Program-made: the position numbers | Part shown: positions 18,001 to 30,000 of the stretch, one piece after another | Layout: every line of letters starts with the position of its first letter | Numbering within the stretch: position 1 is the stretch's first letter | DNA from: an uncultured Eubacteriales bacterium | Lineage (GTDB): Bacteria; Bacillota; Clostridia; Oscillospirales; Acutalibacteraceae | Length of the DNA: 64,000 nucleotides | Assembly: GCA_934454125.1 (NCBI GenBank) | Contig: CAKSFA010000001.1 | Span: 41,090-105,089, forward strand | Direction: 5' to 3'

Positions 18001-21000
18001 CGGGCAGCGAACAAGAGGAGTTTACTGTTGAGACGGTGATTTTGCAGCGGACGAGTTGAGGATCAAAGGCGGCGGAGACGCTGCTTTTTTTTGCGCTTTT
18101 TTGGATGGGGGAAGCTTCGGTAAGGAGTTGGCTTGGATTGTTGGTGTTTTTTGGATGTGATTGTGGGAGGTTTAAAATGGGAGAAATATTGTGAGAGAAT
18201 AGATTGGAGCAGCGAGAAGCTGTTCTTTTTTTGGGATTTGAAAAAATTTTTGAAAAATTTGCATGGTTCAGGCGGAAATTGGAGGGATTTTGCGGGTATA
18301 GTGAACGGGTTTTTTGAGAGGAGGGCGTGTATGGAGCAGGAGGATGTGCGGCAGAAATTGGTGCAGGGACTGGAACGGATAGCGTATGCCAATGTGGGCG
18401 ATGCCGTGAAACTGCTGTTTATGGATCAGTTGAGTGTTCGTGCTTTGCGGCGGTTGGATTTGTTTGCGGTTTCGGAAATCTGCAAGCGCAAGGACGGTGG
18501 CGTGGAGATTAAATTTTATGACCGCTTTGCAGCACTGCGGGCGTTGCAGGAGCTTTATGGTGGAAAAGAAGTGGACGCTGCGGGGTTTTATCATGCATTG
18601 GAGCAGGGTGTGAAATCGTTTGAAGAGGAGGAGCGAGAGGGTGATGCGGTTTGAGCGGTTTTCGAAAAAGCAGATGCAGGTGCTCAGCTGGTGGCAGCGG
18701 GGGAGCCCGTATGCGGATCATACGGCGGTGATTTGCGATGGGGCGGTGCGCAGCGGTAAGACGCTTTGCATGAGTATTTCATTTTTTTGCTGGGCGTTTT
18801 ATCGGTTTGAGGGGCGGGCGTTTGGGATATGCGGCAAGACTGTGCGGGCGGTAAAGCGCAATGTGGTGGCACCGGTGCTGCCAATCTTGCGGGAGCTGGG
18901 GTTTGACTGCCGGCTGAGTGACAGTGAGGACTGCATCTATGTGCGGTTTTGTGGCAGGGAGAACCGGTTTTATCTGTTTGGCGGAAAGGATGCCGGCAGT
19001 GCGGCGCTGATTCAGGGCGTGACGCTGGCGGGTGTGTTTTTGGATGAGGTGGCGTTGATGCCGCGCTCGTTTGTGGAGCAGGCGCTGGCAAGGTGCTCTG
19101 ACGAGGGGAGCAAGCTGTGGTTCAACTGCAACCCGGAGACGCCGCAGCACTGGTTTTACTGCGAATGGATTGCCAAGGCGGAACAGAAACAGGCGTTGTA
19201 TCTGCATTTTTTGATGGAGGATAACCCGGCGTTGCCGGAGCGGGTGCGCAGGCGGTATCGGCAGATGTATGCAGGAACGTTTTATCGCAGATTTGTGCTG
19301 GGAGAATGGGTGAGTACACAGGGGCTGGTGTACCCATTTATGGAGCAGGGGCGTTTTTGCAAAGTGCCGGCAGGTGCGTTTGATGCGTATGTGGTGTCTT
19401 GCGATTATGGGACGGTGAACCCTGCCTCATTTGGACTGTGGGGCAGGCAGGGCGGCGTGTGGTATCGGTTGGAAGAGTATTACTACGATGCGCGGCTGAC
19501 GGGTGTTTGCCGCACCGATGAGGAGCATTACTCTGCGCTGGAGCAGCTGATCGGCGGGCGAAAGGTGCAGCAGATTGTGGTGGACCCTTCTGCGGCGAGT
19601 TTTATCACGCTGATACGGCGCAGGGGACGGTATACCGTGACACCGGCAAAAAACAACGTGCTGGACGGGATTCGTGCGGTGAGCGGGGCGCTCAGGCGCG
19701 GAGAGATTCGTATTTGCGACTGCTGCAGCGATGCAGTGCGCGAATTTGGGTTGTATCGCTGGCAGGACGGGTTGCATCGGGATGCGCCGGTGAAGGAGCA
19801 TGACCATGCGATGGACGACATACGGTATTTTGTGACAACGGTTTTGCAGGAGGAAGAGGATTTTTTTGTGCTGGCGGCAAGGCGGTATTGAGCTTGGCGC
19901 AAAAAAGTGACTGGAACAGAAGGGAGTTTGCATTGCGTTTTTGGAGAAAAAAAGAGCGGACAAGGGAGGCGGGCCGGGACTGCGGAGTGCGGGCAGTGCA
20001 GACCGCGGCGGGGCAGCCGGATTTTTTGACGCTGCAGTGCTGCGGGGGAAATGTGACGGCGGAGCGGCGGCTTTATGCTGCGTTGCGTGAGGCGGTGCCG
20101 ATTATTGATTCGGCGATTAACAAGCTGCTGCGCCTGATTGGCAGTTTTGCCGTGGAATGTGCGGACAAGCAGGCGCAGGCTGCGCTGACACATTTTTTGG
20201 AGCATGTGAAGGTCAATACGTATCAGCAGGGGATTTATAGCTTTATTGGGTGTTATTTTGACCAGCTGCTGACGTATGGCACTGCGGTGGCCGAGATCGT
20301 GCCGACGGTGAGCGGCGATGACATTGGAGCACTGTATGTGGCGGATTTGGATCGGTTGGATTTGATGCATGACGACAAGCAGTTGAGCGTGGAGGTTTAT
20401 GTGCGCAATGAACTGGGAGAGCGCGAGTTGGTGCGCTATCCGGAGTTGTTGCTGATGACGGCGCTCAACCCGCCGCATGGCAGCGCGCACGGGGTCTCGA
20501 TTTTGCGGGGCTTGCCGTTTATCAGTGAGGTGCTGCTGAAAATTTACAAGACGGTGGGTATCAACTGGGAGCGGGTTGGAAATGTGCGCTTTGCGGTGAC
20601 ATATAAACCAAGCGGAGAGCTGGACAAGGCGTATGCCAAGGAGCGGGCGCAGCAGATTGCCACCGAATGGAGTCGCGCGATGCGCAGCGGAGATGTGAGC
20701 GATTTTGTGGCTGTGGGCGACGTTGGGATTCGGGTGATTGGTGCGGATAATCAGGTGCTGGACAGCGAGGTGCCGGTGCGGCAGATGATGGAGCAGATTA
20801 TCACCAGACTGGGATTGCCGCCGTTTATTTTGGGGCTTTCTTGGTCTTCGACGGAGCGGATGTCGAGCCAGCAGGCGGATATTTTGACCAGTGAGATGCA
20901 GGCGTATCGCATGCTGCTCAATCCGTCGATTCGGAAGATTTGTGCGATGTGGCTGGTTTTGCATGGGTATGACCCGGAATTTGAGATTCGATGGAATGAG

Positions 21001-27000: not shown

Positions 27001-30000
27001 GTGCGCGGTTGCTGGCGCACTGTGAGGCACCTGCAACGGGTGCAAATGCAGCGTTTTACCGTGCGCTGGCCTTGCAGCACCCGCAGGTTTATTCGGTGGG
27101 TGTGGTGCCAAAGGAAAATGGAGTGGGAACTGTTTCGGTATATGTTGCTGCGATGGGTGGTGTGCCGGATGCGGATGTGATTGCAGAGTTGCAGGCACAG
27201 TTTGACAATGCCAGAGAATTGAACACTGCTGTGACGGTTCAGGCGGCGGCTGTGCAGAAAATACCGCTGCGGTTGCGGATTAAGGTTGCCCCGGGCTATA
27301 CGTTTGCGCAGGCCAAGGCGGCGTGCCTTGCGGTGATTGATGATTATTTTATGCAGTTGCAGATTGGCGGAACGTTTCGCATTGCTGCGCTGTGCGGGAA
27401 ACTGCTGGAAACCGGCGCGGTTGACAACTATGCAGTGGACACCGGAGCTGACCTGAAACTGGCGCAGAATCGTTTGGCGATGCCGGGGAGCATTACCATT
27501 GAGGAAGGCAGTGATTTGAGTTGAGCATTTCGTTGACGGCAATGACCAATGCACTGTTGGCGGTGGGCATTTATCGGGTGACGGAGGATGCGCGGCTGTT
27601 TGCGGAGCTGAAGGCGTATGATGCAGGGTTGCAGCTTTTGCATGACCGGTTTGCAGAGCTGCTGCGGGAACGATTTGTGTCAACGGCGCAGGCGGATGGT
27701 TTGGAGCTGCGTGAGCGGTTGTATGGTATGCTGCCGTGCACCGGAACGGTACAGGAGCGGCGTGAGCGGTTGCTGCTGCGCGGGGCGACGAATACGGATG
27801 CGGTGAGCAAAGCAACGTTTTTGCAGGCATTGCGTGCGCAGGGAATAACTGCGCAGGTGCATGAATCGCCGGGCACACAGACGGTTGAGGTGACGGTGAC
27901 ACAGGTGCAGGGCGATCGCACACGGGAGGAGCTGGCCCGGGTGATTGTGGCGCTGTTGCCGGCGCATTTGAACTGCAGTGTGATTTTTACAAACGGCGTG
28001 TGATTGGCTGCTGTTTTTGAATTTGAGCATTTTGCGCGCATAAATACCACAACGTTGGGGTTTCTATATAGAGGGAAAAGAAGATCGGAGCAGTATGTTG
28101 TGCTGCTCCGGTCGTCGTTTTTTGGGGAATTTACTTGCATTTGGAAATCTGTTATACTGAACACAAAATGTTGCAAAGGGGGCGTTGCCAATGGAGCTGC
28201 ACGAAAATATACAAACGCCGGAGCGGGCGTTGCTTGTGGCGGTGGATACTGGGGATTATGATGTGCAGGCCTCGCTGGCTGAGTTGTATGAGTTGGTCAA
28301 AACTGCGGGGGCGGAGCCATTTGGCGCGATGACGCAAAAGCGCCCTGCGCCGGAGACAGCCACGTGCGTTGGCAGCGGCATGATTGCTGAAATTGCGGAT
28401 ATTTGCCAGAAGCAGGAGATTGATTTGCTGATTTTTGACTGCGAGCTGTCTCCGACACAAATACGGAATATTGAGCAGTTGACCGGTGTGCGCGTGATTG
28501 ACCGCACCATGCTGATTCTCGATATTTTTGCGGCGCGGGCTGTCTCAAAAGAGGGCAAGTTGCAGGTTGAACTGGCGCAGTTGAAATATATGCTGCCGCG
28601 TTTGACCGGTAAGGGCGCTGCGCTTTCTCGTTTGGGGGGCGGCATTGGTACCCGTGGACCGGGTGAGACGAAATTGGAAACGGATCGCCGCCATATTCAT
28701 CGGCGGATTCAGGCACTGAAAGAGCAGCTTGCGCAGGTGGAAAAGCATCGGGCACAGATTGACCGCCGCCGGAAAAAGGACGGCACTGTGACAGTGGCGC
28801 TGGTGGGATATACCAATGCCGGGAAAAGCACATTGATGAATCGCTTGACCGATGCGGGTGTGCTGGCAAAAGACATGCTGTTTGCTACGCTGGACCCGAC
28901 TGCGCGTGCGCTGCGTTTGCCGAGTGGCCAGACGGTGATGCTGATTGATACGGTTGGTTTGGTGCGCCGTTTGCCGCACCATTTGGTGCAGGCGTTTCGC
29001 TCGACGCTGGAGCAGGCTGCAACGGCAGATTTGATTTTGAATTTGTGCGATGCCTCCAGTGCGGAATCGCAGGTGCATTTGCGTGTGACCAGAGATTTGC
29101 TGGAGGAGTTGGGGTGCCAGGATCGCCCGATTTTGCCGGTGCTCAACAAGTGCGATTTGGTGCCGGAGATTCACCAGATGCCGATGATTGGCGGTGCGGT
29201 GCGCATCAGTGCGGCAACCGGACAGGGGATTGATGAGCTGTTGCAGGCCATTGAAACAAATTTGCCCAAGCAGCATGTTCAGGCAGAGTTGCTGCTGCCA
29301 TTTGCACAGAGTGGACTTGCTGCGCAGATTCGAAAAGAGGGTGCTGTATTGCACGAGGAGTATACAGAACAGGGGCTGCGCATCACCGCGATGGTGCCGC
29401 GCCACTTGCTGGAACAGGCCATACCCTTTGTGATTTTGGGACAGGAGGATTAGCGGTTGCATGGGGGAGTTCCCTATCATGTTTTTGTTTTATTTTGCAG
29501 TTGAATCAAAAGACTTTGGGGCAGACAGGCACGTTCTGCCCTTTTTTTGCGTAGAATGATAGCGGCGCACCGCAATGGTGCGGAGAAAGGAGAGGAGTGC
29601 AGTGCGCAGATTTCAGCGCTTTCGCCGTCGTGGAGGCAGAAGACGGTTCCCCAAAAAGCGCGTTGCCTTGCTGGTGATTTTGGTGGCGCTGTTTTGTTTT
29701 TTCAGCTTTCAGCTGCAACCGATGCTGCGTTCTATCACGATTACGGCAGCAAAGCAGGCGGTGACGATTTCGATTGAAGAAGCAGTGAAAGAACAACTGG
29801 CTGCGGATTCGGTGGATTATGCCGATTTTATCAATATTGAGCGCGATGCTGCCGGTAATATTTTGGGCATTACCACCAATGTGGTCAATATGAACCGGTT
29901 TAAGACGGCGCTTTCTTCTGCGTTGCAGCAAAAGCTGATTACGCGTTCGGCGGCGGTGGGTGTGCCGGTGGGTACGCTGTTGGGCGGTAGTCTGCTGCGT

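Follow-up and report, generated by a model that had tools for sequence, protein, structure and literature searches.

A phage head-and-baseplate gene cluster between htrA and hflX, read as the most reduced form of a domesticated element of Oscillospirales

Why would a bacterial genome keep an uninterrupted set of phage head and baseplate genes with no tail genes between them? The question is raised by a 64,000-nt stretch of contig CAKSFA010000001.1, from an uncultured Eubacteriales bacterium of the Acutalibacteraceae. This stretch is referred to here as the window, and coordinates are those of the window unless another contig is named. The cluster occupies 18331-28003 on the + strand, flanked by htrA (16467-18059) and hflX (28185-29453). 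We read it as a domesticated element of phage origin in its most reduced form. The element is passed on vertically throughout Oscillospirales (the Clostridium leptum group, Clostridia of gut and rumen) and descends from a PBSX/Mu-like ancestor with a short contractile tail. That the cluster is a domesticated element under selection is close to certain; that it specifies a gene transfer agent (GTA)-like particle with a vestigial tail is probable, with appreciable room for doubt.

Conservation and descent of the cluster

In a collection holding one genome per species of Oscillospirales, at least 594 stretches encode a relative of the cluster's major capsid protein (MCP), a count that is a lower bound. 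The protein has more than 8000 database homologues, and the 120 best listed are 56 to 100% identical to it. Carriers include Ruminococcus, Caproiciproducens, Caproicibacter, Faecalispora, Hydrogeniiclostridium, Anaeromassilibacillus, Acutalibacteraceae, and uncultured Ruminococcaceae. Gene order was identical in all 80 genome loci inspected: small terminase (TerS), large terminase (TerL), portal, XkdF-position protein, 113-amino-acid (aa) protein, MCP, the connectors con1 and (con2), a short gap, LysM protein, hub, spike-like protein, wedge, baseplate J, and gp48-like protein. A further 182 IMG/VR contigs showed a matching layout with no room for a sheath gene, many of them being ∼10- to 11-kb "prophage" calls.

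Compared with the nearest species, synonymous sites are saturated (proportion of synonymous differences [pS], >0.75), and all open reading frames (ORFs) are still intact. Across eight closer species pairs, three of which have the short architecture of the window, the ratio of nonsynonymous to synonymous substitution (dN/dS) was 0.01 to 0.24 for each element gene. Values were 0.03 to 0.09 for TerL, 0.02 to 0.09 for the portal, 0.01 to 0.06 for the capsid protein, and 0.00 to 0.03 for a 40-aa ORF discussed below, with 0.00 to 0.10 for the genes on either side (response regulator, kinase, htrA, and hflX). Every gene of the cluster is under purifying selection. The hflX gene adjoins the element in several genera, and pairwise divergence of the capsid, TerL, portal, and baseplate J proteins was correlated with that of hflX (Pearson, 0.76 to 0.88); mean divergence was 0.257 for the capsid protein and 0.259 for hflX.

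The low dN/dS, the intact ORFs, and the co-divergence with hflX together indicate a domesticated and vertically inherited element. An earlier reading of this DNA from its sequence alone (the sequence-only reading) had proposed domestication rather than decay and had suggested comparing the htrA-hflX interval across related species. That comparison bears the proposal out, as the cluster is conserved, syntenic, and constrained, with a shared architecture. Two observations that it had named as telling the other way, relaxed selection and an inducible prophage sitting complete at this site, were not made in the relatives examined, and the recent clean deletion that it had left open is excluded by a layout common to hundreds of species.

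No close relative of the capsid or portal protein was found among cultured phages (best identities, 28.5 and 27.7%, respectively), and close matches to these proteins among phage records were limited to unverified human fecal virome contigs. The GenBank records MT838993.1, MT836604.1, MT835952.1, and MT835769.1 and the IMG/VR uncultivated virus genomes (UViGs) L088 to L167 are copies of the chromosomal element catalogued as "Bacteriophage sp." or as ∼10-kb viral genomes. The treatment of element copies as ∼10-kb viral contigs in IMG/VR and GenBank is an annotation problem. Some copies in virus collections stem from fecal virus-like-particle preparations, which fits host-DNA packaging. Two records, L167 (3817-11434 of a 46.8-kb IMG/VR contig) and L086 (MT835508.1), keep the head module (capsid, 58 to 63% identity) and differ in the genes downstream. 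In L167 these include a sigma-factor/HTH-like (helix-turn-helix) regulator and an endolysin, with no recognizable baseplate gene. Both may be head-only variants or true phages.

Gene content and loss of the tail

The features of the locus are listed below by coordinates and strand.

18071-18095, +, terminator-like hairpin and T run after htrA; left edge of the unit
18206-18233, +, second terminator-like hairpin and T run, within the htrA-TerS leader
18267-18305, +, leader motif TTCAGGCGGAAAT...GGTATAGTGA (also written TTCAGGCG.A...GGTATAGTGA), upstream of TerS
18331-18654, +, small terminase TerS, 107 aa (core match to Pfam Terminase_2)
18644-19891, +, large terminase TerL, ATPase and RNaseH-like nuclease (Terminase_6N/6C, phrog_2)
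19933-21111, +, portal (phrog_30703; E value, 2e−132)
21108-22088, +, XkdF-position protein, 326 aa (phrog_16951; E value, 1e−94; weak head-maturation-protease match)
22100-22441, +, small head accessory protein, 113 aa (phrog_4588, "virion structural protein")
22461-23471, +, MCP, 336 aa (PF25209 Phage_capsid_4, phrog_3922)
23484-23837, +, con1, presumed head-tail adaptor at the XkdH position (position; weak match of the sister homologue)
23834-24175, +, con2, putative head-completion stopper (SPP1 gp16/lambda FII-like fold in a structural model)
24191-24313, +, 40-aa ORF, read as a tape-measure vestige (C-terminal LE[QR]DxRRY motif)
24313-24834, +, LysM protein, 173 aa, at the XkdP/Mu gp43 position (Pfam LysM)
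24867 (alternative start, 24831)-25754, +, baseplate hub, Mu gp44/XkdQ-like (phrog_177, gp44-type structures)
25774-26118, +, spike-like protein, weakly Mu gp45-like (Pfam Phage_Mu_Gp45; E value, 5e−4, below cutoff)
26130-26456, +, small wedge protein at the XkdS/Mu gp46 position (phrog_975)
26457-27524, +, baseplate J wedge protein, Mu gp47-like (PF04865; E value, 4e−51)
27521 or 27542 (gene callers differ)-28003, +, Mu gp48/XkdU-like wedge protein (PF10076; E value, 2e−8, below cutoff; phrog_521, phrog_203)
28083-28123, +, strong terminator-like hairpin with a 14-bp stem and T run; right edge of the unit, before hflX

All 15 + strand ORFs are intact, and independent gene calls on five metagenome contigs encoding an identical baseplate J protein gave the same gene set. 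Overlaps were read in the sequence at 23834 (ATGA), 24313 (TGATG), and 24831 (ATGA, joining the alternative hub start and the LysM stop); ORF coordinates give a further overlap at 27521 and abutting genes at 26456/26457. GC content matches that of the neighboring DNA, hflX begins 180 bp past the last cluster gene, and no flanking direct or att-like repeats were found around the cluster. The sequence-only reading had described these uninterrupted, coupled ORFs of host-like composition, bracketed by terminators between htrA and hflX without att-like repeats, and the ORF calls, sequence, GC content, and hairpins at 18071 and 28083 agree with it. Its structural labels are likewise supported by Pfam, PHROG, and solved-structure profile searches, some of the matches being weak. 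The capsid, LysM, and Baseplate_J family matches are clear; those to Terminase_2, Terminase_6N, and gp48 are weak or below Pfam cutoffs, and the Pfam XkdR and XkdS families gave no match in the cluster at E values up to 0.01.

Pfam and PHROG scans of the ORFs between 14 and 33 kb identified no sheath, tube, long tape measure, fiber, holin/endolysin, integrase, or replication gene in the cluster, and no repressor, lysogeny-control, or regulatory gene was found there. Nor were sheath, tube, tape-measure, integrase, or replication genes identified elsewhere in the 64-kb window, where a search with a tube hidden Markov model (HMM) and a tblastn search for sheath were also negative. A first match to the tube HMM was an artifact of stopper-tube fusion ORFs in the seed and was lost with the trimmed HMM. 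ORFs at 41 to 48 kb that are sheath- or tube-like by size proved to encode L21, Prp, L27, Obg, and a mini-RNase III protein. The scans therefore agree with the lack of tail, lysis, integration, and replication genes noted from the sequence, except for a tape-measure stub. The con2-LysM interval of the window holds only the 40-aa ORF.

What this interval once held is suggested by a sheathed sister element, found in part in virome contig L087 (MT835769.1) and complete in L168 to L170. In L168 (Oscillospiraceae; GCA_048184115.1, contig DBEYXK010000012.1) it spans 14.4 kb (4446-18834). Its capsid, TerL, and portal proteins are 57, 55, and 51% identical to those of the window, and its con2, LysM protein, hub, spike, baseplate J, and gp48-like protein are also homologous. 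The head genes (TerS [104 aa], TerL, portal, XkdF-position protein, 116-aa protein, and capsid) are followed by con1, con2, and the 169-aa gapA (phrog_25177). Next come a 354-aa sheath (Phage_sheath_1), a 129-aa tube-position protein (phrog_27038), two chaperone-position ORFs, and a tape-measure-position protein of 177 aa (177/183 aa). The baseplate genes (LysM protein, hub, spike, wedge, baseplate J, and gp48-like) and a lysis cassette with an XhlA-like gene, two holin-like genes, and an M15 endolysin complete the element. No integrase was found in it. It lies between thyA/DHFR/PNP/HAD genes and CoA-transferase genes, a site different from that of the window. This sister shows the ancestral state, a complete PBSX-like element with a short tail and no integrase in the same bacterial order. 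The sister may in its own right be a short-tailed GTA or tailocin. More than 1000 sequences fall into its con2 clusters (P0140), and no published description of the sister was found in the literature searched.

The 40-aa ORF links the two forms. The motif [EQ][RQKL][DE]xRR[YF] occurred in 89 of 8378 + strand ORFs of the loci and in none of 2750 − strand ORFs; in 87 of the 89, the ORF ends where LysM starts, and the remaining two lie at the equivalent place in loci truncated ahead of LysM. As the tape-measure-position protein of the sister ends with the shared motif (...SLSLERDARRYD[SG]GFLFY), the 40-aa ORF is read as a putative C-terminal tape-measure stub. In contractile tails, the C-terminal end of the tape measure sits inside the hub. 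The tape measure reported as absent from the window is thus indeed missing at full length, yet it appears not to be wholly gone, a C-terminal vestige being left. An ancestral tape measure of more than 1000 aa, as had been expected, finds no support in the ∼177- to 183-aa protein of the sister.

In the genome loci inspected, the MCP-to-LysM distance fell into three classes (∼0.73 to 0.87, 1.13 to 1.18, and 1.54 to 1.87 kb), none of which could accommodate a sheath gene. Among 134 loci with both capsid and LysM genes, a sheath-sized gap was present only in L087, the copy of the sheathed sister. Neck classes were defined in these 134 loci by HMM presence or absence. The long class, found in Ruminococcus and Faecalispora, has con1, con2, gapA, tube, and stub (93 loci in the first HMM tally). 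The medium class (Caproiciproducens and Caproicibacter) has lost gapA and carries con2 and tube in one ∼220- to 251-aa ORF, called as a 220- to 223-aa protein; in P0172, P0200, P0205, and P0215, the con2 part comprises residues 1 to ∼100 and the tube part residues 104 to 218. The short class, comprising the window, L006 to L009, L021, L028, L033, L064, and others, has neither gapA nor tube. In a neighbor-joining tree of capsid, TerL, and portal rooted on the sheathed sister, sheathed lineages are basal and each class occupies its own block, with the exception of two stray medium-class loci (L163 and L036); the short and medium blocks adjoin.

The 1:1 fusion of stopper and tube subunit suggests that the tube is one ring and not a polymer. 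Taken together, the in-place tape-measure stub, the tube genes without sheath, and the stopper-tube fusion point to a tail lost stepwise and not relocated, which disfavors the earlier suggestion that tail parts are encoded elsewhere. Living lineages record this loss under continuing selection, from sheath, tube, and 177-aa tape measure through tube and ∼40-aa stub to stopper-tube fusion and finally no tube. The series bears on how tail length is set, on baseplate roles without a sheath, and on the origin of short-tailed forms from myovirus ancestors.

Other changes were seen in the same region. A 155-aa fiber-like gene follows the gp48-like gene in about one-third to one-half of evaluable loci and is absent from the clade of the window. 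P0139, P0146, and P0185 (220 to 222 aa) have con2 at residues ∼116 to 221 behind a con1-sized N-terminal part and may be adaptor-stopper fusions. In P0194 (175 aa), a sister-type con2 is followed without a break by the LysM-bearing C-terminal part of the LysM protein; such a fusion would delete gapA, sheath, tube, and tape measure, and it could be an assembly artifact.

The candidate particle and competing explanations

Among the packaging genes, TerS differs between clades. The window TerS covers only positions 59 to 129 of the 141 in the Terminase_2 profile, the N-terminal HTH region being missing, and starts with the ATG at 18331, which is preceded by a GGAGG ribosome-binding site (GAGAGGAGG). 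TerS also starts just past the HTH region in the rest of the window's clade, in the Caproiciproducens-type clade, and in the sheathed sister, whereas Ruminococcus-type homologues keep the N-terminal domain (LTxREKxFC...G...AGY). TerS proteins without a DNA-binding domain have been described for RcGTA of Alphaproteobacteria and for FpGTA of Faecalibacterium prausnitzii (PMC12946183). Of 120 loci, at least 97% conserve the Walker A, Walker B, and nuclease Asp motifs of TerL. The XkdF-position protein, presumed to be a prohead protease fused to a scaffold, has 54 invariant columns, including C144, C147, C156, H158, and C173. The 113-aa head protein is present in 78 loci, and MCP is 65 to 89% identical across genome loci.

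At the neck, con1 is present in 76 loci and is presumed to be the head-tail adaptor; its sister homologue has a weak match to the phrog_541 adaptor. Profile searches against the sequences of solved structures gave no match for con1, con2, the XkdF-position protein, or the capsid protein. A homologue search with con2 alone gave four proteins and was repeated with an alignment as the query. The AlphaFold2 (AF2) model of con2 had a predicted local distance difference test (pLDDT) score of 83, and 9 of its 10 top Foldseek matches in the PDB (probability, 0.77 to 1.00) were neck or stopper proteins of ∼110 to 130 aa. These included 8hdr_A, 9gb5_G, 9l0e_A, 7z4w_1, and 8xow_f (template modeling [TM] score, 0.42 to 0.57), and the proteins matched come from Pam3, phiCD508, and T1 and include SPP1 gp16 and a lambda neck protein. 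E values were ∼0.03 to 0.09, with none below 0.001, and the predicted stopper role rests on consistency among the matches rather than on a single decisive one.

On the tail side, six proteins make up a Mu-like baseplate: the LysM protein, a gp44-like hub, a gp45-like spike, and gp46-, gp47-, and gp48-like wedges. The hub profile matches 3d37, 3cdd, and 1wru (43-kDa tail/gp44 hub proteins; E value, 5e−7), the small wedge protein matches the baseplate wedge subunit 9euf_L (E value, 0.006), and the spike-like protein matches gp45 in 9ki1_V (E value, 0.09). The C-terminal LysM domain is genuine, its profile matching solved LysM domains; the sister homologue has a weak DNA_circ_N (Mu gp43) match, and the LysM protein is presumed to be a tube-initiator or hub subunit. 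In two loci, the tblastn matches to the spike-like protein (L046, 14098-14442) and to the small wedge protein (L029, 7674-7976) each contain an in-frame stop, which may mark local pseudogenes in individual metagenome-assembled genomes (MAGs) or assembly errors.

In the mechanism that we propose, the cluster would be transcribed as a single operon that begins in the conserved leader ahead of TerS and ends at the 28083 terminator. The portal, protease/scaffold, capsid protein, and 113-aa protein would form a prohead, to be filled by the HTH-less TerS and the TerL with its intact catalytic motifs, probably with host DNA and without sequence specificity, and to be closed by the con1 adaptor and the con2 stopper. 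The six-protein Mu-type baseplate would be built around the 40-aa tape-measure remnant and, with no sheath, tube, or terminator, could sit on the stopper, giving a head-on-baseplate particle with a zero-length tail. The wall of a recipient might be bound through the LysM domain and baseplate, and DNA could possibly enter via competence proteins. It is from the genes that we infer a GTA-like function, as we do particle formation, packaging content, the joining of head and baseplate, and DNA transfer. DNA packaging in a GTA-like particle is the outcome that we moderately favor; direct docking of the head on the baseplate falls a little short of an even chance.

Several points weigh against this proposal. 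The element is known here from its genes alone. We know of no way in which a sheathless myovirus-type baseplate could push a spike through a cell wall, and of no solved particle in which a stopper sits directly on a baseplate. None of the tail-less loci has a linked lysis gene, those of the sister having no homologue there, and unlinked tail or lysis genes could possibly lie outside the 64-kb window. Many family members, those of the Ruminococcus type, retain the TerS HTH domain, and nonspecific packaging is therefore not a trait of the whole family. For the capsid protein, AF2 modeling on 14 aligned sequences gave a pLDDT of only 49, and the model was not used for a fold search.

One rival reading is a tailed GTA encoded at several loci, with sheath, tube, tape measure, fibers, and lysis genes elsewhere and a normal contractile tail. 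Known GTAs are multilocus, as in the accessory loci of RcGTA and operon II of FpGTA (PMC12946183). A wedge protein at the gp25/gp46 position is retained in the window, no lysis gene is linked, and the tail-gene searches covered the 64-kb window. This arrangement is nevertheless unlikely, since the tape-measure vestige is conserved at its ancestral position, related clades hold a tube within the cluster without a sheath, and the stopper-tube fusion fits one ring. The sister, moreover, encodes everything in one locus, and no tail gene lies elsewhere in the window.

The element could instead have been exapted without gene transfer, for release of extracellular DNA (eDNA), for a wall- or spore-related structure, or for defense, with capsids (DNA filled or empty) and a wall-binding baseplate working either jointly or apart. 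It has neither sheath nor lysis cassette, it lies among sporulation and housekeeping genes (yunB, spoIIIA), and the data show selection but not its target. The strictly conserved portal and terminase ATPase/nuclease motifs point to DNA packaging, however; head and baseplate genes share one translationally coupled operon in every lineage, and the stopper-tube fusion physically ties the head side to the tail side. We consider exaptation of this kind distinctly unlikely.

A complete head module without a tail would also suit a phage satellite, akin to the capsid-forming phage-inducible chromosomal islands (PICIs), that builds heads of its own and borrows the tails of a helper phage, and candidate GTA clusters from gut MAGs have been thought possibly to be satellites in a preprint (10.64898/2026.07.08.737213). 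Against this stand the lack of any integrase, replication, regulatory, or att feature, the fixed chromosomal position and co-divergence with hflX, and a complete baseplate, needless for a tail thief, and the idea is very improbable. A decaying prophage remnant or strain-specific clean deletion would account for the missing tail, lysis, and lysogeny genes, but this reading is refuted by the comparative data and can be practically discounted, with the architecture present in hundreds of species, dN/dS far below 1 for each gene, ORFs intact at saturated synonymous divergence, and no close capsid or portal in cultured phages.

Known systems and the surrounding sequence

The domesticated head-and-baseplate element thus remains the preferred reading, and its closest known organization is that of PBSX of Bacillus subtilis. 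The cluster follows the order of the PBSX xkd map (TerS, TerL, portal, XkdF, capsid, XkdH/I [con1/con2], XkdP, Q, R, S, T [baseplate J], and U), a likeness drawn from the gene map. In the same PBSX order, the sister in L168 adds an XkdJ-position gene, sheath, tube, chaperones, tape measure, and a cassette of the XhlA/holin/endolysin type. PBSX and the window element are both chromosomally fixed in Bacillota without an integrase, but the latter lacks sheath, tube, terminator-position gene, full tape measure, fiber, lysis cassette, and repressor. With phage Mu it shares an equivalent baseplate set (gp43 to gp48) in equivalent order; in Mu, however, this baseplate starts a long tube and sheath with a full tape measure, which the window element does not have. 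Capsid-forming PICIs resemble it in having TerS, TerL, portal, capsid, and connectors without a tail, yet they are mobile, carry integrase, replication, and regulatory genes, and have no baseplate, the opposite of what is seen here.

To our knowledge, few GTAs have been described, almost all in Alphaproteobacteria, and FpGTA is the sole GTA-like element characterized in this bacterial order. Full-text literature searches found no prior description of the window cluster. RcGTA-type agents, the viriforms of Alphaproteobacteria, share with it a phage-derived structural operon without replication or integration genes, vertical inheritance across an order, purifying selection, and a TerS without a DNA-binding domain (established features of RcGTA, also summarized in PMC12946183). 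Their genes are unrelated, their hosts are different, and their tail is siphovirus-like with a real tape measure; moreover, packaging and transfer are demonstrated for RcGTA, in contrast to an element known from genes. FpGTA comes from the same host order and is likewise GTA-like, with no replication genes and no DNA-binding domain in TerS. It comprises two operons, and its particles have no visible tail (Borodovich et al. 2026, PMC12946183). It differs in having an N4-gp56-family capsid, a Prp-like protein, and a tail nozzle, with fibers and lysis genes in the second operon, whereas the window element has a PF25209 capsid and a Mu-like baseplate. The two are different elements, set apart by annotation and not by sequence. 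NCBI labels the homologues of the window capsid "phage major capsid protein."

Recent virome studies report that short pieces of the chromosome are packaged in a GTA-like manner in Ruminococcaceae and Oscillospiraceae, with fragments of 4.6 to 8.9 kb in related taxa, and among the gut members of these families a gene cluster has been identified only in Faecalibacterium (PMC12946183). Packaging without a reported cluster is described for Ruminococcus callidus (4.6-kb fragments), Gemmiger, CAG-115, Onthomonas, and Christensenellaceae (PMC12946183). The element described here is a widely distributed candidate for such clusterless packaging in other genera of the same order, and cultured carrier strains exist in which it is directly testable, among them Faecalispora sporosphaeroides DSM 1294, Caproiciproducens galactitolivorans, C. 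faecalis, Caproicibacter fermentans EA1, Hydrogeniiclostridium mannosilyticum ASD2818, and rumen Ruminococcus isolates; the genome CP181261.1 is a further carrier. More tentatively, and with doubt outweighing confidence, it could represent a new particle type in which a Mu-type baseplate directly caps a DNA-filled HK97-type head, with a tail of zero or one ring. Such a particle would act as a GTA in hundreds of species of Oscillospirales, those of Ruminococcus, Caproiciproducens, and Faecalispora among them, and would explain some clusterless short-fragment packaging in the gut, for example, the 4.6-kb fragments of R. callidus.

Immediately upstream of TerS, the leader motif at 18267-18305 is partly conserved in L006 to L009 despite synonymous saturation between these species. 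It may be promoter-like, perhaps a regulated promoter or an attenuator. A sigma-70 scan detected no promoter upstream of TerS, visual comparison of the leader with the consensus sites for sigma E, F, G, H, and K of Bacillus gave no assignment, and no RNA family was detected by an Rfam scan of 17900-28400. Within htrA, three tandem 90-nt units that are 90 to 94% identical lie at 16562-16849, in the N-terminal part of the ORF.

The remainder of the window carries housekeeping and sporulation genes, including a two-component system, yunB, ligA, spoIIIA, nusB, xseA, L21/L27, obg, and dnaX. Its only lysin-like gene (54052-57357, + strand) encodes a giant cell wall hydrolase of 1101 aa with at least eight bacterial SH3_3 repeats and a Phage_lysozyme domain (residues 836 to 928); a link between this hydrolase and particle release would be speculation. 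At the left end, on the − strand, 162-5861 encodes a 1899-aa protein with large clostridial toxin domains, namely, a TcdA/TcdB glycosyltransferase domain (E value, 2e−37), Peptidase_C80, and a TcdA/TcdB pore-forming domain (E value, 9e−82). The gene sits in a low-GC stretch (1-6000; 32 to 39% GC versus 45 to 59% otherwise), and the protein is shorter than TcdB and so probably lacks the combined repetitive oligopeptides (CROPs) region. The adjoining gene (6165-10004, − strand) has a product of 1279 aa that carries a Spy0128-like isopeptide (FctA) domain and is probably a pilin or an adhesin of the cell surface.

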